This document shows positions 37 to 46,326 of a stretch of 64,000 nucleotides of DNA, piece after piece (the stretch's first letter is position 1; each line of letters opens with the position of its first letter). Origin of the DNA: Candidatus Saccharibacteria bacterium CPR2 (GTDB lineage: Bacteria > Patescibacteriota > Saccharimonadia > Saccharimonadales > QWHN01); the NCBI GenBank assembly GCA_021404905.1, contig QWHN01000005.1, forward strand, positions 16,102-80,101. The letters run 5' to 3'. Below the pieces are notes generated by a model that saw nothing but the letters and a program-made list of their open reading frames with translations, was not told the origin of the DNA and ran no database searches. Position numbers and translations under genes: made by a program.

Positions 37-2661
37 GTGAAAAAAGTTCTAGCTAAAATATTCGGTGACTTGCAAAGTAAAACTATAAAAAGATTGCGCA
101 AAAAAGTTGAACAAATTAACCATTTAAGCGAAAAATACTCTAAGTTCAGCGATGACGAATTAAAGGAAGAAATATCAAAATTAAAAGAAGCGATTCAGAG
201 CAAGAAAAAAACACTTGATGATTGCTTGGTAGATGTTTTCGCAATAGTAAGGGAAGCTGGAGAAAGGTCAACAGGTTTAAGGCCATTTGACGTTCAGTTG
301 ATTGGCGGCATGGTTCTTCATGAAGGCAATGTTGCTGAAATGAGAACTGGAGAAGGTAAAACGCTGGTTGCGACATTACCTGTTACCCTAAATGCTTTGG
401 AAAACAAAGGTGTTCATGTTGTTACGGTCAATGACTATCTTGCTCAGCGCGATGCCGGATGGATGGGTGGAATTTATAATATGCTGGGTTTAAGTGTCGG
501 CGTGATTATACCGGACGCGTCATTTATATACGACGTTGAATATCGCAATGAGGATCATGATGATGAGAGGTTTTTGCATTTAAGACCGTGTTCACGCCAG
601 GAAGCATATCAGGCAGATATTACCTATGGCACAAATAATGAATTTGGCTTTGATTATTTAAGAGACAATATGGTACGCGATGTCTCGCAGCTCAGGCAAA
701 GAAGCTTGAATTTTGCAATTGTCGACGAGGTTGATTCAATTCTTATCGATGAAGCACGAACACCTTTAATTATTTCCGCGCCAGCCATGAATAGCGGCAG
801 TAAATATGCTCAATTTGCTCAAATTGCCAGGAAACTTACGGAGGAAGATTATGAACTAGACGAGAAACGGCGAGCAGTCAGCATTAACGACGATGGAATT
901 GCCAAAGTTCAAAAAATGCTCAATGTTGATAATTTATATGCTCCTGAAAATGTTCAACTAATCTATCATTTAGATCAGGCTTTAAGAGCGCAAACTCTGT
1001 TTAAAAGGGACAGAGACTATATAGTTTCTGATGATGGCGAGGTAATAATTGTCGATGAATTTACCGGTAGGTTAATGCATGGCCGAAGATACAATGAAGG
1101 GCTTCATCAGGCAATCGAAGCAAAAGAGGGAGTTGAGGTTTTGCAGGAATCTATGACGCTTGCGACAATCAGCTTTCAAAACTATTTTCGTCTTTATAAA
1201 AAACTTGCTGGAATGACTGGAACCGCTAAAACCGAGGAAGAGGAATTTCACCAAATATATAAACTTGATGTTATTGAGATCCCAACAAACAAGTCTAGCG
1301 TCAGAACAGACAAGCCCGATAGGATTTATAAAAACGAAAAAGGAAAATTCAGCGCGCTGGTTAAAGATGTGAAAGCTCTGCATGAAAAAGGGCAGCCGGT
1401 TTTGATCGGTACAGTCTCGATTGAAAAAAACGAAAAATTATCATATCTCTTGAGAAAATCAGGCATACCGCATCAGGTTTTAAACGCAAAGAACAATGAA
1501 GGCGAAGCAGCGATAATCGCCAAAGCAGGTCGGATAGGTGCTGTAACTCTAGCGACCAATATTGCCGGGCGTGGAACAGACATTGTGCTGGAAGAAGGAG
1601 TTACGAAACTGGGCGGACTTATGGTACTTGGTTCGGAGAGGCACGAGTCGAGAAGAATAGATAATCAGCTAAGAGGTAGATGCGGCCGACAGGGTGACCC
1701 AGGCGTAACTCAGTTTTATGTTTCCGCTGAGGATGAGTTAATGCGTATATTCGGCGGAGAAAGAGTTGCTTCATTAATGGAAAGGCTGGGAGTTGATGAC
1801 GAGACTCCAATAGAAAACAGGGCTGTCAGTAAAGCGCTAGAGAATGCACAGAAGAAAGTCGAGAGCTTTAACTTTGACAGCCGAAAGCACGTGGTCCAAT
1901 TTGACGATGTAATGAACCGCCACCGCAAGGCAATATATACACTAAGAAGAACTGTTCTTGAGAACAAAGAAATCGAGACAAATATAAAAGAGATGATTAA
2001 CGGAGAGATTGAATCTCTAAGCGTCGACCAAACACAATCAGAACAAGAATTCATTACCCAAATAAATTCTGTGTTTCCACTTGAAGAAAAGTACGCCAGA
2101 AAGTTAAGAAAAGCACAACCAGCAAAAAGAGCTAACGAACTCGAAAAAGTCGTGGCTGAAATGTATAAAGATAAAAAAGAGATTTTTTCATCAGAAATTT
2201 TCCATGCCATAGAAAGAGAAATTTATTTGCAGGTTCTTGATACTCATTGGATGGGGCATCTTGAAAATATGGATCATTTGAGAGAAGGAATCAACTTGAG
2301 GTCAATTGGGCAAAAGGATCCTTTGGTTGAATATAGACGTGAAGGTCAAAGAATGTTTGAGATAATGCAGGCAAATATTAGGAATGAGGCTGTAAAGCTA
2401 TTATTTCACGCTGTGCCAAGAGTTGAAGAACCTGTTGAGGGTCCGATTGAGACTGAACTAACCAAAGCAGCCCGTCACTCTACAGAATTGGGCGCAGGTA
2501 AAGCGACGAGCGGGGTTAAGGAATTAACTAAAAAAGACCAAACAACCCGATTACCAGAAGATAATAAAGATAATATTGAACAAAAGAAAAAATCCGGTAA
2601 AAAGCAACAGCTTAGAAAAAAACGAAAACAGCAACGTCAGAATAGAAAAAAGAGAAAGTAA
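37..2661 (+). CDS. secA: Preprotein translocase ATPase SecA
   Basis: 874-aa ORF with GTG start. SecA motor motifs MRTGEGKTLVATLP (Walker A), DEVDSILIDEARTPLIIS (Walker B) and TNIAGRGTDI. The C-terminus is a Lys/Arg-rich tail. Confidence 0.95.
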   Translation: MKKVLAKIFGDLQSKTIKRLRKKVEQINHLSEKYSKFSDDELKEEISKLKEAIQSKKKTLDDCLVDVFAIVREAGERSTGLRPFDVQLIGGMVLHEGNVAEMRTGEGKTLVATLPVTLNALENKGVHVVTVNDYLAQRDAGWMGGIYNMLGLSVGVIIPDASFIYDVEYRNEDHDDERFLHLRPCSRQEAYQADITYGTNNEFGFDYLRDNMVRDVSQLRQRSLNFAIVDEVDSILIDEARTPLIISAPAMNSGSKYAQFAQIARKLTEEDYELDEKRRAVSINDDGIAKVQKMLNVDNLYAPENVQLIYHLDQALRAQTLFKRDRDYIVSDDGEVIIVDEFTGRLMHGRRYNEGLHQAIEAKEGVEVLQESMTLATISFQNYFRLYKKLAGMTGTAKTEEEEFHQIYKLDVIEIPTNKSSVRTDKPDRIYKNEKGKFSALVKDVKALHEKGQPVLIGTVSIEKNEKLSYLLRKSGIPHQVLNAKNNEGEAAIIAKAGRIGAVTLATNIAGRGTDIVLEEGVTKLGGLMVLGSERHESRRIDNQLRGRCGRQGDPGVTQFYVSAEDELMRIFGGERVASLMERLGVDDETPIENRAVSKALENAQKKVESFNFDSRKHVVQFDDVMNRHRKAIYTLRRTVLENKEIETNIKEMINGEIESLSVDQTQSEQEFITQINSVFPLEEKYARKLRKAQPAKRANELEKVVAEMYKDKKEIFSSEIFHAIEREIYLQVLDTHWMGHLENMDHLREGINLRSIGQKDPLVEYRREGQRMFEIMQANIRNEAVKLLFHAVPRVEEPVEGPIETELTKAARHSTELGAGKATSGVKELTKKDQTTRLPEDNKDNIEQKKKSGKKQQLRKKRKQQRQNRKKRK

Positions 2662-7251: not shown

Positions 7252-7935
7252 ATGATATTGCTTGATAGGGTTACTAAAAAGTACTCGAAGAAATCCCCGG
7301 ATGCGTTAACGAGTGTTAGCCTTCATGTAGAGCCAAAAGAGTTTGTTATAGTGGTAGGAACCAGCGGGGCAGGGAAATCTACTCTAATGAAACTATTAAC
7401 GAGAGAAGAAAAACCCACTTCAGGAAAAATAATAGTTGGCGGGATCGACTATGACCGACTCAAGGATCGCGACATTCCGCGTCTGCGACGTAAAATTGGC
7501 GTGGTCTTTCAAGATTTCAAATTATTGCCAAACAGAACTGTTTTTGAAAATGTTGCTTTTGCCCTTGAAATTGTGGGAATGAGCAAAGCCGAAATAAACC
7601 ATACGGTTCCCAAAGTACTTGATTTAGTGGGGTTAAAAGGAAAAGAAAAGCAATTTCCTGATGAACTTTCTGGCGGTGAAAGACAAAGAGTTGCTATTGC
7701 CCGGGCAGTTGTGCGCCAGCCAAAAATACTTATTGCCGACGAACCAACGGGCAATCTTGACCCAAAGCACGCTTGGGATATTGTGAACTTACTTCTAAAA
7801 ATAAATCGTTACGGAACAACGGTGTTGCTCACCACTCACAACCAGGAAATTGTCAATAAATTAAAACGCCGCGTTATTACCATCAAGGACGGAACTATTG
7901 TACAGGATCGTGCAAAGGGCGGGTATAAAGAATGA
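7252..7935 (+). CDS. ftsE: Cell division ABC ATPase FtsE
   Basis: 227 aa. Walker A GTSGAGKST, ABC signature LSGGERQR, Walker B ILIADEPTGNLD. Immediately followed by ftsX. Confidence 0.9.
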   Translation: MILLDRVTKKYSKKSPDALTSVSLHVEPKEFVIVVGTSGAGKSTLMKLLTREEKPTSGKIIVGGIDYDRLKDRDIPRLRRKIGVVFQDFKLLPNRTVFENVAFALEIVGMSKAEINHTVPKVLDLVGLKGKEKQFPDELSGGERQRVAIARAVVRQPKILIADEPTGNLDPKHAWDIVNLLLKINRYGTTVLLTTHNQEIVNKLKRRVITIKDGTIVQDRAKGGYKE

Positions 7936-8864
7936 AACACAAATTTATATCTTTAATGCGAATTTTACACGCAGGGGCGCGAAATTTTATACGTAATGCT
8001 TGGCTTTCTACCGCAGCGACGGCTGTTATGGTAGTAACTCTGACAGTTTTGCTCGGAGCAATTGCGATCAACATGGCCCTCAATGACACAATTGATGACA
8101 TTGCTTCGAATATAACCCTCTCAGTTTATCTTAAAGATAACACCGATTCATCAAGCCGCGATAAACTGCAAGAAAAGTTAGAGGGGGACGCAAATGTCAA
8201 AGGAGTTGAATATGTTTCCAAACAGCGAGCTCTTGATTTGTTTCGCGAATGGAATAAAGATAATCCCGAACTGCTTGAAGGTTTGTCTATAACGGATAAT
8301 GCCTTGCCGGCGTCTTTAGAGGTTAAAGTTCATGACTTATCAAGAATTGAAAACGTGGGCACAATTGCTAAAAGTGATGAATTTTCAGATATTGTCGAAA
8401 GTACGAGCATCGAAAAAGAACGGCATCAAAAATCAATTGACACTTTTGCCGGCGCACAGAATTTTATTACAATCTCAAGTCTTATAACCGCTGGAGTTTT
8501 CGCGGCGATCTCAGTATTAATAATATTTAACACGATTCGTATGGCAGTATTTACTCGTTCTCAAGAAATCGAAATCATGAAATTAATTGGTGCTACGCCC
8601 GGTTATATTCGCGGGCCGTTTCTGTTTGAATCATCTCTTTATGGCGCTATTGCCGGGATTTTAAGTTTTGTGGCGGTTTACAGCGCATTGCTCGCCCTTG
8701 GCCCCAAAGCCGATTCACAAAAACTATTATTTGGCCCAACGGTAAGTTTCTTTGCTCATAACTGGCTCTTAGTACTGCTCGGGACGGTGTCTGCGGGTGT
8801 AATTGTCGGATATATTTCCAGCTCTTTGGCGCTATTTAGGTATTTGCGCCTTAAGAAGTGGTAG
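7932..8864 (+). CDS. ftsX: Cell division permease-like protein FtsX
   Basis: 310 aa. N-terminal TM, a large extracytoplasmic loop, then three C-terminal TM helices. 4-nt overlap with ftsE. Confidence 0.85.
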   Translation: MKHKFISLMRILHAGARNFIRNAWLSTAATAVMVVTLTVLLGAIAINMALNDTIDDIASNITLSVYLKDNTDSSSRDKLQEKLEGDANVKGVEYVSKQRALDLFREWNKDNPELLEGLSITDNALPASLEVKVHDLSRIENVGTIAKSDEFSDIVESTSIEKERHQKSIDTFAGAQNFITISSLITAGVFAAISVLIIFNTIRMAVFTRSQEIEIMKLIGATPGYIRGPFLFESSLYGAIAGILSFVAVYSALLALGPKADSQKLLFGPTVSFFAHNWLLVLLGTVSAGVIVGYISSSLALFRYLRLKKW

Positions 8865-14593: not shown

Positions 14594-15775
14594 TTACTTC
14601 CTTTTCATAACCAAAAGCTCTCGTCCAACAACTTGATTAAATCTTCTATAAATTAGGTCGTTGTTGTTAGCGTGAGAAAAACTCAGACGAGTATATCCTA
14701 AACTCTCGAGGCGGTCAACTGTTTTAAGGTGTAATAGCTTATTTTTTGACCACCAAACCGGCACCGCCAAGCATAGTCGCGCGCCAGATTTTAACTGATC
14801 ACAGACGTTAAGCAGAAATTTCTCTAAAATTTCATCTACTTGCGTCTTAATTATTTCAATTTCTTTTTCTCCCGGAAAAACTCGTAATGGCGGCCCAAGA
14901 TATATTTCGCTGGCTATATGTTGAATTGGTGATTTATGTTCGGGTTCTAACTTGAGTTTAGTCGCGTCTGCTACTGAAAGCGAATATTGCATGCTACGAT
15001 TGTGTCCATAATTTTTTTTCAGCCAATTAAGATTAACATTGGCATACTCAACCATGCGTGGATCGATATCACTTCCATAAACGTCAATGTTCATTAAAAG
15101 TGCTTCTTGAAGTAACACGCCGGTGCCACAAAACGGATCCCAAAGAATGCCAAATTCTTTTACGCCGGAGAGATTAATCATAATTTGTGCTAATTTTGGG
15201 GGCAGCATGCCAACTCTGGCGTCGCGTTTTGGCCGGCCATGGTCTCGTTTGCTGTAAAAATTAATATTTTGAATTGCCACTGTTTGACATAAAACTAATT
15301 GATTACGGTTAAATGCTGCGATAATTTCGAGATTCGGCGATTGGTCCAGATTGTTGTGAAGCACCTGGGCGCTGCTAAGCTGAGATTTGCCTGACCCAAC
15401 AATGCGGATATTCGTTTTATAAGATTTGCGAAAATTGTGTTTGAATTCAATCATTTTATTTTGGAGGATTTTTGCAGAAACTTTTACCCCATAAACACTT
15501 ATCCCGACATTACATTTGGCATCTACATTCTTTACCTTTTCTGTAAAAATCTTTTCAATTATTGGCCAAGCTTCCTCAAAATTTTTTACCGAAGCCTGTT
15601 TTAAAACCAATGCGATTTTTTGACTGCCGCCAAGCCTGGTGATACTAGGCTCAGTATCTAAATCAACGAGTGCAATGTCTTTACCAAAGCTGGCTAAACT
15701 ATTAGCTCCATAAACACTTTCAAGTTCCGCCAAAGACAACTTAGGCTGCCTGCCCAAAACAAACGCGTATTTCAT
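14594..15775 (-). CDS. SAM-dependent RNA methyltransferase, Trm11/Trm14/RlmL-like (putative)
   Basis: 393 aa. Class I methyltransferase motif I region LWDPFCGTGVLLQEA followed by GSDIDP. The N-terminal half could be a THUMP-like RNA-binding module. Abuts rpmA with no spacer. Confidence 0.55.
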   Translation of the reverse strand: MKYAFVLGRQPKLSLAELESVYGANSLASFGKDIALVDLDTEPSITRLGGSQKIALVLKQASVKNFEEAWPIIEKIFTEKVKNVDAKCNVGISVYGVKVSAKILQNKMIEFKHNFRKSYKTNIRIVGSGKSQLSSAQVLHNNLDQSPNLEIIAAFNRNQLVLCQTVAIQNINFYSKRDHGRPKRDARVGMLPPKLAQIMINLSGVKEFGILWDPFCGTGVLLQEALLMNIDVYGSDIDPRMVEYANVNLNWLKKNYGHNRSMQYSLSVADATKLKLEPEHKSPIQHIASEIYLGPPLRVFPGEKEIEIIKTQVDEILEKFLLNVCDQLKSGARLCLAVPVWWSKNKLLHLKTVDRLESLGYTRLSFSHANNNDLIYRRFNQVVGRELLVMKRK

Positions 15776-42925: not shown

Positions 42926-43783
42926 TTATCGTAATGCCCATTTTCCTCCACCTATGCACGACACTACACCCTTAATTTCAAGCATTGTCAAAATATTGTT
43001 CACTAAAGTTATATCAGATTCTAACAATTGGGATAGTTCGTCTACATCTCTTGCTTGGTCAATAAGCAATTTTATTACCATTGCTTCTTCCGGGTTGTCT
43101 GCCATGGCTCTTTCTTTTGATATGTTTGCAACAGAAAACCCAAGTGTCTGAGTGACATCTTCCGAGTTACTAACTAGTGTTGCGCCGATTCTGATTAAAT
43201 TATTTGTACCGGCACTTAGCGGACTTGTAATATTCCCCGGGACTGACATAACGGCGCGGTTTTGCTCTAAAGCAAACCTGGCTGTCGTAAGCGAACCACT
43301 TTTTTGAGCAGCTTCAGTCACTATTATTCCAACTGCCAAGCCAGAGATTATTCGATTACGCGCGAGAAAATGATGCTTTAGTGTTTGAGTGCCTTTAGGA
43401 TTTTCGCTAACAATAGCTCCACCTTGATTAATGATTTCTTTCGCGAGCTGCGTATGGCATGCGGGATAAATTCTATCAAGTCCATTTGCTAGTACGGCAA
43501 TAGTCTTTCCTCCTGCATCGATAGCTCCTTTGTGAGCCATACTGTCTATTCCAAGAGCAAGACCGCTAATTATGGTACATCCCGCTTTAGCTAAATCATA
43601 AGCCAATTGATATGTAATATCCCTGCCGTATTTGGTAGCTTTGCGCGCGCCTACTATAGCGACAGGATTGGTAACATCAGTCAAGCCACGGCCTACACCG
43701 TACAGAATTTTGGGAGGATCAGGAATCTCTGTTAATAATTTTGAATAATCTGGATATTTATATTCGAGGATATTGTAATTCAT
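42926..43783 (-). CDS. dprA: DNA processing protein DprA (Smf)
   Basis: 285 aa. Rossmann-like DprA core (VAIVGARKAT.YG, SGLALGIDSMAHKGA) and a C-terminal winged-helix-like tail. Confidence 0.9.
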   Translation of the reverse strand: MNYNILEYKYPDYSKLLTEIPDPPKILYGVGRGLTDVTNPVAIVGARKATKYGRDITYQLAYDLAKAGCTIISGLALGIDSMAHKGAIDAGGKTIAVLANGLDRIYPACHTQLAKEIINQGGAIVSENPKGTQTLKHHFLARNRIISGLAVGIIVTEAAQKSGSLTTARFALEQNRAVMSVPGNITSPLSAGTNNLIRIGATLVSNSEDVTQTLGFSVANISKERAMADNPEEAMVIKLLIDQARDVDELSQLLESDITLVNNILTMLEIKGVVSCIGGGKWALR

Positions 43784-43804
43784 TAAAAAAGATTATAAAA
43801 AGTA

Positions 43805-43833
43805 TTGACACTAAACATATTTCGTGTTAGATT
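43805..43833 (+). promoter_or_regulatory. Sigma-70-type promoter candidate (TTGACA-17 nt-TAGATT)
   Basis: Consensus -35 TTGACA at 43805-43810, a 17-nt spacer, and -10-like TAGATT at 43828-43833. Points into an ORF-poor structured region. Confidence 0.45.
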
Positions 43834-43839
43834 ACTTGA

Positions 43840-44205
43840 CTGGTAAGCATTATCATTGCTTACGCACATTTTACACCAATACCCCCATTTTAACAGATTT
43901 CTCTTTCTCTGAAAGAGGAACTGTTAGGTTGCTTGCAACGTGCGTCATCGTGAAGTATCTACCCTCCACTTTACAATCAACGCGTATTTGTTCTTTAAAG
44001 AGTAAATAAAGTTGTTGCAAGTAAACTAACCCCTTTAATCTCCCCCGACGGGGATTATCCCTTGTTATCAAGAGTAAGTCCTTTATTGGATGGCCTTTGG
44101 CCGGCTCCACACACACCTAGAGTGGTCGCTTTACTCTCGGGTGGGTGATTAAAGGGTTTTATCAAGGCTCAGTGGTGCCCACCCCCGCTGAGCCTTGATT
44201 TTTTT
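43840..44205 (+). ncRNA. Candidate structured ncRNA of unknown class (about 365 nt)
   Basis: Bounded by the promoter candidate and a strong intrinsic terminator. Local hairpins at 43843-43863 and 43901-43917. Nested long-range helices 44031-44040:44147-44156 (10 bp) and 44071-44077:44131-44137 (7 bp). No convincing ORF. Confidence 0.45.
44161..44205 (+). terminator. Rho-independent terminator
   Basis: 12-bp stem atcaaggctcag / ctgagccttgat (44161-44172 : 44188-44199) followed by a T7 run. Confidence 0.8.
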
Positions 44206-44211
44206 GAATAA

Positions 44212-44361
44212 TTTTCAGCGCTATATAACGTCGCCCTGTCTACTGGCAAAAGCCAGCAGCTCTGGCGACTCTTCGTCAGGAGCTGCGTTACTCTTTCGCA
44301 GTACTTCTGTGTACAGCTTCAGTCCGTTACTCGCTCCTTCCTTGTATATAGCTGCTGAAAA
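44212..44361. ncRNA. Candidate structured RNA element closed by a 16-bp helix (strand undetermined)
   Basis: ttttcagcgctatata (44212-44227) pairs with tatatagctgctgaaaa (44345-44361) with one bulge. Internal hairpins include ctggc-aaaa-gccag, ctgcg-ttactcttt-cgcag and gtac-ttctgt-gtac. Confidence 0.3.
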
Positions 44362-44455
44362 TCACCCAAAAACGATTAAAAAGCTAAATTACCCCCTTCT
44401 CTTATACAACACCTACATCTATCACAAAACACAAAGTATTCAAGATAAATTTTTC

Positions 44456-45019
44456 TTAGACTGTAATTTTTGCTTCTAAAGGAAAATCGTTGTTGATAAA
44501 ATTCCCTATAAGTTTATAGCTTGCCGAAATGACTTTGTGTAAATTTTCTTCCTCGGCTTTCGTAAATCGGGAGAGCACGAAATCACTGCTCTCGCGTTTT
44601 TCTGTCTCGGCATTTCGGATGCCAACTCTGATTCTGTAAAAATCATCTCCTATCGTACTGATTATAGACTCAATACCATTATGGCCTGCGCTTCCTCCCG
44701 AAAATTTGGTCTTAACAATACCAAATGGAATATCCAATTCATCATGTATCACTAGGACATTTTTATTTTCTATTTTGAAAAATTGTTTCACGGCAAGCAC
44801 CGATTCCCCGCTGAGATTCATAAAAGTCATTGGTTTTATGAAAATTATTTTCTCGTTATTTACATTTTGCTCAGTGTAAGCGGCCTTTAGTTTTGGTTTC
44901 TCCTTGAATTCATCCAGAGAATTTTGCTTGGCAAAATAATCGATAGCCATAAACCCGGTGTTGTGGCGAGTATGTTCGTATTCTTTGCCAGGATTTCCGA
45001 GACCGACAATAAGCTTCAC
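44456..45019 (-). CDS. pth: Peptidyl-tRNA hydrolase
   Basis: 187 aa. MKLIVGLGNPGKEYEHTRHNTGF and GHNG motifs. Confidence 0.9.
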   Translation of the reverse strand: MKLIVGLGNPGKEYEHTRHNTGFMAIDYFAKQNSLDEFKEKPKLKAAYTEQNVNNEKIIFIKPMTFMNLSGESVLAVKQFFKIENKNVLVIHDELDIPFGIVKTKFSGGSAGHNGIESIISTIGDDFYRIRVGIRNAETEKRESSDFVLSRFTKAEEENLHKVISASYKLIGNFINNDFPLEAKITV

Positions 45020-46326
45020 TGTTTATCTCCTTCTCTAAAAGAAAACATTACCGGCGTGCCTTCATAACCAAATTCTTCCCGAAAAGTTCGCTCTAAATAT
45101 CTTTTATATGACCAATGAAGCAGTTTTAAATTTGACCCATAAATTACAAACCATGGCGGATTTGTGTCGGTTTGTACTGCATATCGCAACTTTGGGTAAG
45201 TATTTTTTAACCCTGCGGGCGGATGTTTGGATACTGCCGAAGACAACCATTTGTTCAGCTTAACTGTTTTTACTTTTTGAGCTCGGGTTTTAACGATATC
45301 CAGCGCAACATCATAGAGTGAAGTGACATTTTGACCAGTTACCGAACTTGTAAAAACAAGCGATGCCCAAGGTACAAAATCGAATTCGTATTTTATTTGT
45401 TTTGCCATTTCATCTCTAGTAAAAGCGTCCTTCTCTACTAGATCCCATTTGCTGATGACGAGCGCCAAACCCCTGCCCGATTCTTTTACCATGCCGGCGA
45501 TTTTTTGATCCAGGTGAGTGCCGAGTTCGACCGCATCGATTAAAAGTAGACAAACATCCGATGATTCTATAGCTTCTAGCGTACGAATTACGCTAAAATG
45601 CTCTACTCCTCTATCAATTTTGCTGCTTCTTCTAATACCGGCTGTGTCGCGCAGACGTATGTTTTGTCCATGATAACGTACCGTAGCTTCATTTACATCT
45701 CTAGTTGTGCCAGAAATGCTCGATACAATAGCCTGCTGTTTTTTCGCAAGCGTATTGAAAAGGAATGATTTCCCTACATTTGGCCTGCCCACAAGAGATA
45801 TGGTTATTACATCTTCTTTTTTGGGAATATGCTTCGGAATAACTTCTATCAATGAATTAAGCACATCTTCTATGCCTTTGTTGTGCAAGGCCGAAACCGG
45901 CACTATATTCTTGATGCCAAATTTTACCAAGTGATCCAGACTACTGCCACCCAGTTTATCAATTTTATTGGCTATTAAAATGACCGGCTTTTTAGTTTTT
46001 AGGGCGCTTCTTGAAATTGCGCGATCTTCTTCATTCATACCAGAGGTAGCTTCAACAACCACCAAAATAACGTCTGCCGATGATTCGGCTTGGGCAATTT
46101 GTTCTTGGATTGTTGCCTCAAACTCATCTTCAGGCTCTTTAAGGCCAGCGGTGTCAACAACCCAAAATTCGTGGTTTTCCCAGCTGGTTTTGCGGTATAT
46201 GGCATCTCTTGTGGTACCGGGTTCTTTTGCAACAATGGCATCACGCCGGGCAACGAAACGATTAAATAGACTCGACTTGCCAACATTTGCCCGCCCCACA
46301 ATAGCCACAATTGGTAATTTGCTCAT
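45016..46326 (-). CDS. der: Ribosome-associated GTPase Der (EngA)
   Basis: 436 aa with tandem GTPase domains (GRANVGKSSLFN / DTAG; GRPNVGKSFLFN / DTAG) and a KH-like C-terminus. Confidence 0.9.
   Translation of the reverse strand: MSKLPIVAIVGRANVGKSSLFNRFVARRDAIVAKEPGTTRDAIYRKTSWENHEFWVVDTAGLKEPEDEFEATIQEQIAQAESSADVILVVVEATSGMNEEDRAISRSALKTKKPVILIANKIDKLGGSSLDHLVKFGIKNIVPVSALHNKGIEDVLNSLIEVIPKHIPKKEDVITISLVGRPNVGKSFLFNTLAKKQQAIVSSISGTTRDVNEATVRYHGQNIRLRDTAGIRRSSKIDRGVEHFSVIRTLEAIESSDVCLLLIDAVELGTHLDQKIAGMVKESGRGLALVISKWDLVEKDAFTRDEMAKQIKYEFDFVPWASLVFTSSVTGQNVTSLYDVALDIVKTRAQKVKTVKLNKWLSSAVSKHPPAGLKNTYPKLRYAVQTDTNPPWFVIYGSNLKLLHWSYKRYLERTFREEFGYEGTPVMFSFREGDKQ

Follow-up and report, generated by a model that had tools for sequence, protein, structure and literature searches.

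Several large bacterial RNAs, among them OLE, the raiA motif, ROOL, and GOLLD, are produced from stand-alone genes of several hundred nucleotides (nt), combine covarying helices with invariant single-stranded blocks, and are conserved over a large taxon, with functions that cannot be deduced from the neighboring genes. Here, we describe a conserved, independently transcribable, noncoding, and highly structured unit with the same general features, which belongs to an RNA family absent from Rfam. It lies beside dprA in a 64,000-nt stretch of DNA from Candidatus Saccharibacteria bacterium CPR2 (GCA_021404905.1, contig QWHN01000005.1, positions 16,102 to 80,101, forward strand), hereafter called the window, to which all positions refer. 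Unlike OLE, the raiA motif, ROOL, and GOLLD, this RNA has no Rfam match, is confined to Saccharimonadia, has another architecture, and is tightly linked, in divergent orientation, to dprA.

Other described RNAs resemble it in part. RNAIII and RsaE/RoxS are structured small RNAs (sRNAs) with their own promoter and with C-rich motifs in apical loops, including the terminator loop. The RNA described here likewise has its own promoter and exposes C-rich loops, that of the terminator hairpin included, but it matches none of the covariance models of these sRNAs, is far more deeply conserved, and carries an internal GGGUGGG partner for one loop; nor do start codons here show a convincing enrichment of complementary G-rich sites. 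Its size, its high conservation, its long-range helices, and a contact resembling a pseudoknot recall ribonuclease P (RNase P) RNA (RF00010, including the diverged forms of the Candidate Phyla Radiation [CPR]), from which it differs in lacking conserved regions CR-I, CR-IV, and CR-V, the P1 pairing of the ends, and a model match. Like 6S RNA and Ms1, it reaches from promoter to terminator, is probably an abundant RNA of the housekeeping type, and has no target gene nearby, but it is multibranched with local terminal hairpins, whereas 6S RNA forms a closed rod around a central bubble. As far as Rfam 15 and the literature searched extend, the RNA represents a new family, and no curated RNA class can accommodate it.

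Results

A first-pass annotation had proposed that the 672-bp gap between dprA (42926 to 43783, minus strand) and pth (44456 to 45019, minus strand) holds a stand-alone promoter-to-terminator noncoding RNA of unknown class, and the Rfam, transfer-messenger RNA (tmRNA), conservation, and covariation results all support that proposal. The gap sits within the gene order rsuA-der-pth-dprA-topA, which is the same in the closest relative, L081. The named relatives of the DprA protein are Saccharibacteria (class Saccharimonadia), the nearest being 70% identical and the others approximately 50%. With the gap sequence as the query and dprA loci as targets, nhmmer aligned positions 43787 to 44209 with the region preceding dprA in L081 (E = 2.5e-91), where blastn shows 86% identity, and matched ten further Saccharibacteria loci (11 in total), including that of Nanosynbacter sp. 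TM7-087, which carries the homologue L015. Homologues lie upstream of dprA, in divergent orientation, in every Saccharibacteria dprA locus having a usable flank, and in the nhmmer alignments invariant blocks alternate with variable hairpins. The unit was thus retained in relatives at 43805 to 44205, but the remaining 250 bp of the gap pointed out by the annotation (44206 to 44455) are not present in the closest relative.

A metagenome scan with a pattern of two invariant blocks (TACCCTCCACT and ACTAACCCCTTTAA, separated by 24 to 54 nt) matched at least 120 loci. Our sample of homologues comprises 139 instances among the matches listed, from public genomes and metagenomes; 110 are complete (-35 box through T-run), 103 of these are distinct, and 79 share less than 85% mutual identity. 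From the nonredundant set, we prepared alignments of 79 5' halves (A2) and 77 3' halves (A3), with shuffles and slid pairing partners as covariation controls. Measured between the -35 box and the end of the T-run, the complete homologues are 282 to 544 nt long, corresponding to an RNA of 250 to 510 nt, and most of the 103 distinct sequences are only 47 to 63% identical to the window. Across the homologues, indels lie in hairpins, substitutions are compensatory, and the invariant loops survive where the adjoining stems have changed completely.

The plus strand of positions 43838 to 44205 folds with a minimum free energy (MFE) of -130.5 kcal/mol, compared with -87.2 +/- 5.2 kcal/mol for dinucleotide shuffles (z = -8.3; none of 100 shuffles reached the native stability), and the opposite strand has a folding z of -6.0. 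The MFE structure includes the hairpins and both nested long-range helices proposed in the first-pass annotation. The G+C content is 0.49 to 0.53 at 44000 to 44300, in the 3' half, compared with 0.29 to 0.37 in the flanking spacer, in agreement with the locally raised G+C content noted earlier.

In the 5' half, the transcript begins with hairpin HP1 (GUAAGCA/UGCUUAC, 43843 to 43849 and 43857 to 43863), which appears in the MFE structure, was already recognized in the first-pass annotation, and covaries, with double changes in four of its five outer pairs (79 sequences). A conserved 5' linker, unpaired in the MFE structure, follows (43864 to 43896; family consensus GCACCUUAUACCCCCAUUCUAAC); it holds CCCCC at 43882 to 43886 and a (C/U)UAAC copy at 43890 to 43894. 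The next element, HP2 (43897 to 43921), contains the ctcttt/aaagag pairing seen before, which is indeed present, within a longer hairpin (43898 to 43907 and 43911 to 43920), but turned out to be an optional, lineage-variable insertion, missing or different in length in many homologues. The longest covarying helix, P3, was absent from the first-pass annotation, as was the invariant ACCCUCC loop described below. P3 is an interrupted helix of 17 bp between GUUAG-GU-UGCUUGCAAC (43923 to 43939) and GUUGCAAGUAA-A-CUAAC (44014 to 44030), with compensatory changes in 11 of 17 pairs and 91% of cells paired; RNAalifold, applied to A2, yields the same helix as GUUAG-AU-UGUUUUAGAGCG and CGCUCUAAAACA-NA-CUAAC, with compensatory changes in 9 of the 14 predicted pairs. 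In most members (e.g., L006 and L045), the 5' strand of P3 reads GAUUGUUUUAGAGCG and pairs with CGCUCUAAAACA, and in the window it reads GGUUGCUUGCAAC. The former resembles what we take to be the start of a Cas9 repeat, GUUUUAGAGC; since P3 covaries to unrelated sequences such as that of the window, we regard the likeness as coincidence.

P3 carries the P4 hairpin (43950 to 43974; stem 92% paired), whose 11-nt loop AUCUACCCUCC at 43957 to 43967 holds ACCCUCC. Within this loop, UACCCUCC is invariant among the 79 sequences and the AC that follows is nearly so (A in at least 90%). The divergent members L004, L007, and L017 retain (C)ACCCUCC, L028 has ACCUCC, and L014 has UCCCUCC. A further hairpin of the MFE structure in the P3 junction, P5 (43985 to 44008), is variable, and homologues have a hairpin of varying sequence and length at this position.

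The 3' domain is enclosed by P6, formed by CCCUUUAAUC (44031 to 44040) and GAUUAAAGGG (44147 to 44156), the 10-bp long-range helix of the first-pass annotation. Every P6 cell is paired in the 77 sequences and three pairs covary; further compensatory changes occur in L014 (CCUCUUUGAC:GUCGAAGAG) and L028 (CCCUCUAAC:GUUAGAGGG). P6 encloses a small, lineage-specific GC hairpin of the MFE structure, UCCCCCGACGGGGAU (44041 to 44055), where the variable 3' domain begins, and P7, in which AGAGUAA (44071 to 44077) pairs with UUACUCU (44131 to 44137). This inner helix, likewise predicted before, is kept through compensatory changes as well; its homologous form, AGCGAG/CUUCGCU, covaries; for example, 32 sequences have CG where 23 have UA. 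Within P7 lies a variable multibranch insert (44078 to 44130), including a GGCC-UUU-GGCC hairpin at 44092 to 44102 and, in the family, one extra covarying hairpin; the distance from the end of the ACUAACCCCUUUAA block to the G-rich block, which contains the insert, is 44 to 146 nt in 75 of 79 representatives. The G-rich block itself, GGGUGGG (44139 to 44145), forms a nearly invariant junction between P7 and P6. Many lineages have one or two additional hairpins between the GGGUGGG junction and P6 on one side and the terminator on the other.

Covariation supports this fold in both halves. For HP1, P3, and P4 in A2, 88.5% of cells are paired compared with 78.3% in shuffled alignments, a value reached by none of 500 shuffles, and 195 cells show double changes compared with 58 in shuffles; the slid controls have 33 to 49% of cells paired. 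For P6, P7, the terminator, and the candidate pseudoknot in A3, the corresponding values are 95.6% compared with 82.7% paired and 331 compared with 94 double changes, with slid controls at 38 to 61%. Compensatory changes in HP1, P3, P6, P7, and the terminator stem thus far exceed the shuffled and slid controls. A blind mutual-information scan of both alignments returned the same helices as its top pairs, P3 among them, and revealed no further long-range or tertiary pairs beyond these helices and one insert hairpin. G.U wobbles are common in the conserved helices (e.g., the P6 U.G in 62 of 77 sequences) and fit the plus strand only, which identifies it as the transcribed strand.

The invariant GUUAG at 43923 to 43927 can pair with either of two (C/U)UAAC copies, at 43890 to 43894 or 44026 to 44030, and this arrangement is found family-wide. 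Pairing with the first of these closes HP2 and pairing with the second extends P3, and only one of the two can form at a time. As GUUAG is invariant even in the several lineages that have lost the upstream copy, the downstream pairing is the better supported. The alternative pairings might constitute a conformational switch.

Transcription is predicted to start from a sigma-70-type promoter with a TG-extended -10 element (43805 to 43833, plus strand), in which TTGACA (43805 to 43810) and TAGATT (43828 to 43833) are separated by 17 nt; the promoter scan scored it at 10 of 12 matches, in line with the first-pass annotation. The promoter, GTATTGACA-N17-TAnAAT, is kept in all 110 complete homologues extracted. 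The predicted transcript of approximately 365 nt spans 43840 to 44205, with a start (+/- 3 nt) that we infer from the -10 box and an end at the T-run. The stem followed by T7 that the annotation had placed at 44161 to 44205 was found there as an intrinsic terminator hairpin with a 15-bp stem (44161 to 44175 and 44185 to 44199), a 9-nt loop, UGCCCACCC (44176 to 44184), and T7 at 44199 to 44205; the terminator scan overlooked it because its loop limit is 8 nt. All 12 aligned pairs of the stem covary and 98% of cells are paired (A3), the T-run is present on one strand only, and the loop is invariably UGCCCACCC within the main family, with its CCCACCC preserved from Nanosynbacter to soil lineages. 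The window carries every family element: the promoter, the GUUAG.../...CUAAC of P3, the ACCCUCC loop of P4, the P6 strands CCCUUUAA(C/U):...AAGGG, the GGGUGGG junction, the terminator loop UGCCCACCC, and the divergent dprA.

To search with structure, we used a covariance model (R1) of P3, P4, and block C, with 111 positions and 21 pairs, built from 45 training sequences, on the window and on 81 loci gathered solely via their DprA. It matched 21 of the 81 loci, each time directly upstream of dprA in divergent orientation, and matched the window once (81 bits; E = 6e-12), so that the unit is single copy there; as the window is among the training sequences, this score is partly circular. No match was found in the Chloroflexota, Proteobacteria, Acidobacteriota, or other CPR dprA loci tested. 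With filters off, Berkelbacteria, Moranbacteria, and Harrisonbacteria dprA loci gave no significant match, L028 (Nanosyncoccus) was matched at E = 0.012, and L004 and L017 were matched weakly; by eye, L004 and L017 retain the promoter, the CACCCUCC loop, P6, and the C-rich terminator loop.

Comparison with known families was negative throughout, in agreement with the earlier failure to recognize a tmRNA, RNase P RNA, signal recognition particle (SRP) RNA, or T-box in the sequence, which Rfam, ARAGORN, motif scans, and a survey of neighbors now bear out. At gathering thresholds, Rfam 15 returned two distant tRNAs only in the whole window and no match in six homologous loci; at E <= 10, it returned noise only, such as microRNA (miRNA)-like hairpins, a small nucleolar RNA, and CRISPR direct-repeat types, at 43700 to 44500 and only miRNA-like hairpins in the divergent homologues L006 and L015. 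RNase P models RF00010 and RF00011 had no match at gathering or E <= 10 in the window, L006, or L015, and SRP RNA (RF00169 and RF01854) and 6S RNA (RF00013) had none at E <= 10 in the same three sequences; the covariation-supported fold is multibranched. The combination of the RNase P CR-I motif GAGGAAAGUCC with a downstream ACAGAA...GGCUUA did not occur in the window and 201 loci (1.48 Mb). The string nearest to CR-I, AGAGUAAGUCC at 44071 to 44081, lies in the variable insert absent from minimal members. P1-type pairing of the RNA ends was not found; each end instead folds on itself as a covarying hairpin, HP1 at the 5' end and the terminator at the 3' end. In the CPR, RNase P RNAs can score under the Rfam cutoffs, but all circular CPR genomes of that study, two Saccharimonadia included, have RF00010-type RNase P RNAs with recognizable features (Lui et al. 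2021, PMC8172020); the RNA described here shows none of these conserved features.

ARAGORN detected no tmRNA, tRNA-like domain, or tag in the window or in any RNA-bearing locus. It did call a tmRNA with an odd 27-residue tag at 196 to 558 (minus strand) of L052, a "Thermotogae" dprA locus, which is unrelated to the RNA. A riboswitch, T-box, or other cis-acting leader was ruled out, as pth is convergent in the window and the downstream gene is codirectional in just 29 of 87 loci. A full-text literature search, including the Breaker laboratory genome surveys, a Patescibacteria perspective, and the TM7x transcriptome preprint, did not retrieve a description of this RNA.

The unit contains open reading frames (ORFs) of 81 amino acids (43871 to 44116, minus strand) and 61 amino acids (43824 to 44009, plus strand), which the first-pass annotation had dismissed as noise. 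Stops and frameshifts interrupt both in the 86%-identical L081, and we reject a protein-coding reading. The similarity between homologues extends over several frames and both strands, indicating conserved DNA rather than a conserved reading frame.

In the window, a 21-nt spacer separates the dprA start codon (43783 to 43781, minus strand) from the -35 box of the RNA (start codon and spacer together, 43781 to 43804). Across the family, dprA lies divergently beside the -35 hexamer in 89 of approximately 100 loci with enough flank, mostly at a distance of 12 to 22 nt by tblastn and of 19 to 21 nt in 32 of 49 distinct spacers by ORF calling, and its starts mostly lack a Shine-Dalgarno motif. It is the sole conserved neighbor. 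The gene on the other side of the RNA varies, with pth or der in approximately one-third of loci, and is codirectional with the RNA in 29 of 87 loci and on the dprA strand in 58, so that the RNA has no downstream gene to regulate.

A TATAAT lies 8 nt before the dprA ATG in the window (43797 to 43792, minus strand). A leaderless -10 box for dprA was rejected as a family-wide feature, since it was found in just 18 of 49 spacers. Among crude gene calls in the window, a GGAG, GAGG, or AGGA motif occurs upstream of only 8 of 54 genes, and a -10 box (at least five of six matches) ends 5 to 10 nt before the start codon in 10 of 53, for example at 14594 to 15775 (minus), 15854 (plus), 23330 (plus), 45016 to 46326 (minus), and dprA; such boxes hint that leaderless mRNAs are common in this genome.

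A few loci have the RNA without an adjacent dprA. One of these, L202, is IMG/VR contig IMGVR_UViG_3300049064_000004, the sole viral-collection match among the matches listed; its RNA, at approximately 7930 to 8400, is a typical family member, and tblastn detected no dprA within the 8.4-kb locus. Upstream genes encode a RecT-like protein, a PD-(D/E)XK-FtsK fusion, and two DNA methylases, the nearest ending approximately 1.3 kb before the RNA, which suggests that a prophage or integrative element adjoins the RNA gene. Four loci labeled Candidatus Parcubacteria, "bacterium," or "uncultured bacterium" (L039 [JAHWKM010000009.1], L003, L014, and L036) carry the Saccharimonadia-type arrangement of RNA and dprA, and these taxonomic labels may be imprecise.

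Between the terminator and the pth stop codon, positions 44206 to 44455 form a second structured stretch (z = -4.9) with an inverted repeat, TTTTCAGCGCTATATA...TATATAGCTGCTGAAAA, at approximately 44211 to 44362. This 250-bp stretch is missing from L081, where the gap measures 440 bp instead of 672 bp, and has no second copy in the window or the fetched loci. As it is not conserved and is unique to the window genome, we rejected it as part of the RNA unit; an insertion specific to this lineage or a small mobile remnant may account for it.

Discussion

With slightly better than even confidence, we favor the interpretation that the unit is a stand-alone gene for a stable, structured noncoding RNA, the representative of an uncataloged Saccharimonadia-wide family, which acts in trans as a scaffold binding a conserved partner. 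The strong promoter, the protective hairpins at both ends, and the class-wide conservation point to an abundant, stable, trans-acting RNA. Since the stems vary freely and the three C-rich strands and the G-rich junction do not, the helices would serve as the scaffold and the single strands as the working surfaces. The invariance of these strands over such evolutionary depth further suggests that the partner, whether a protein or a G-rich RNA segment, is itself highly conserved.

Considering these data, we propose the following model. The near-consensus extended -10 promoter would drive a transcript in which the 5'-terminal hairpin emerges first and the intrinsic terminator last. The RNA folds as HP1, then P3 carrying P4, and then the 3' domain, with P6 enclosing P7 and the size-variable insert. 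In this fold, the helices would present three near-invariant single strands: CCCCC in the 5' linker, ACCCUCC in the P4 loop, and UGCCCACCC in the loop of the terminator. This last loop may pair with the GGGUGGG junction in a pseudoknot that compacts the 3' domain, or alternatively the same pairing may form in trans and link two molecules. The conserved cellular partner, a protein or a G-rich RNA, would be met at the ACCCUCC loop and at the C-rich linker, and the RNA would work in trans, as a housekeeping-type ribonucleoprotein (RNP) or a scaffold, instead of regulating locally. Its fixed place beside dprA would reflect overlapping back-to-back promoter regions.

Several points weigh against this interpretation. 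Expression of the RNA is predicted from its sequence, its 5' end is placed by the -10 box, and its partner is one that we infer from conservation. The proposed pseudoknot rests on the complementarity, noted in the first-pass annotation and found as described, between GGGUGGG (44139 to 44145) and CCCACCC in the terminator loop (44178 to 44184), which is perfect in the window and paired in 90% of A3 cells. This pairing has no covariation support in the 77 sequences of A3, where covariation cannot probe it because both sides are nearly invariant. Moreover, three outliers have one partner only: GGGUGGG is missing from the P7/P6 junction of L186 and L010, and L007 has no C-rich terminator loop. We consider the pseudoknot plausible. 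The tight link to dprA could reflect a local role instead, and absence from Rfam and from the papers searched does not prove that the family is undescribed.

A base-pairing riboregulator of the RNAIII or RsaE type, whose C-rich loops block the G-rich ribosome-binding sites (GGAGG, GGGGG) of mRNAs, would account for the exposure of three C-rich motifs on a structured RNA and for the (C)ACCCUCC(UUU) in the P4 loop of the deep members, which is close to the anti-Shine-Dalgarno tail of 16S rRNA. UGGGGGU, the complement of the linker, is also found 43 times, 14 of them 3 to 12 nt ahead of an ORF start, compared with 8% in permuted controls, but this signal comes mainly from one orthologous gene of related genomes and the motif is itself Shine-Dalgarno-like, so that these two circumstances confound the apparent enrichment. 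Just 1 of the 51 GGGUGGG sites and 4 of the 31 GGAGGGU sites precede an ORF start, neither above controls; this crude motif-position test at ORF starts gave no support to ribosome-binding-site pairing. With Shine-Dalgarno-like motifs at only 8 of 54 window genes, and with class-wide conservation at 11 to 16 invariant nt being rare among base-pairing sRNAs, we judge such a riboregulator unlikely. Somewhat less probable still is a cis-acting element of dprA control, in which the promoter or transcript modulates dprA-topA, by occlusion of the back-to-back promoter or antisense pairing with pth-dprA read-through transcripts, and the structure mainly stabilizes the RNA. It draws on the dprA start lying 19 to 21 nt from the -35 box in 32 of 49 spacers, mostly without a Shine-Dalgarno motif, on dprA being the sole conserved neighbor beside a varying downstream gene, on the 58 of 87 loci in which that gene lies on the dprA strand and permits read-through over the RNA gene, and on the restriction of the T-run to one strand. 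However, covariation and invariant loops reach 400 nt from dprA, and neither antisense pairing nor occlusion needs them; 29 of the 87 loci offer no read-through partner; and a few, L202 included, hold the RNA without adjacent dprA. A purely local role would have no need of 250 to 500 nt of covarying structure, and these rare loci contradict it.

That the RNA is an extremely diverged RNase P, 6S, SRP, or tmRNA escaping current models would fit its size of 250 to 510 nt, strong promoter, and class-wide conservation, and CPR RNase P RNAs often do fall below Rfam thresholds (PMC8172020). Yet three divergent members match no such model even at E <= 10; the GAGGAAAGUCC/ACAGAA/GGCUUA set, a tRNA-like domain, a tag, and 5'-3' end pairing were all missing; the consensus is multibranched rather than a rod with a central bubble; and both circular Saccharimonadia genomes of that study have RF00010-type RNase P RNAs. 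We consider this explanation improbable. We give hardly any credence to the idea that the unit, instead of being an RNA gene of its own, codes for a small protein, is a relic of a mobile element, or specifies the guide RNA of a transposon-encoded nuclease. ORFs of 81 amino acids (minus) and 61 amino acids (plus) do exist, and one homologue lies on an IMG/VR contig near RecT, FtsK-like, and methylase genes, but neither ORF is intact in L081, the indels lie in hairpins, base changes are compensatory, the unit occurs once in 64 kb in fixed synteny, and no nuclease or transposase gene is nearby.

The trans-acting scaffold that we favor can be extended to a bolder proposal, which we advance tentatively and regard as rather unlikely as a whole. 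In this scenario, the RNA would be a Saccharibacteria-specific, probably essential RNA machine with an anti-Shine-Dalgarno-like ACCCUCC loop, assembled as an RNP or RNA oligomer, acting in translation or nucleic acid handling in these host-dependent bacteria with their reduced genomes, and would form a new functional RNA class of a rank with 6S RNA and OLE. ROOL, GOLLD, and OLE have been reported to assemble as RNPs or RNA-only oligomers, and the self-complementary GGGUGGG/CCCACCC might let the RNA described here do the same. In the deep-branching members L004, L007, and L017, where the RNA lies upstream of dprA, the P4 loop reads CACCCUCCUUU. This is one nucleotide longer than CACCUCCUUU, which we take to be the general sequence of the 16S rRNA 3' tail (anti-Shine-Dalgarno region).

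Saccharibacteria have reduced genomes, that of TM7x being approximately 94% coding, and no validated small RNAs are known in TM7x (bioRxiv 10.1101/2022.03.25.485537). A gene of 250 to 510 nt that is present in every sampled lineage, with blocks of 11 to 16 nt fixed while the stems have turned over, implies strong selection. The RNA likely serves a basic cellular process that is missing from the current annotation of these organisms, and it provides a defined target in some of the few cultivable, genetically tractable members of the CPR. The family joins the few large bacterial RNAs that have no known function, and its covariance model is usable as a marker for Saccharimonadia contigs, so that the RNA could mark the lineage. 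DprA is a transformation protein of naturally competent bacteria, and the link between the RNA and dprA may reveal how DNA uptake is coordinated in Saccharibacteria.

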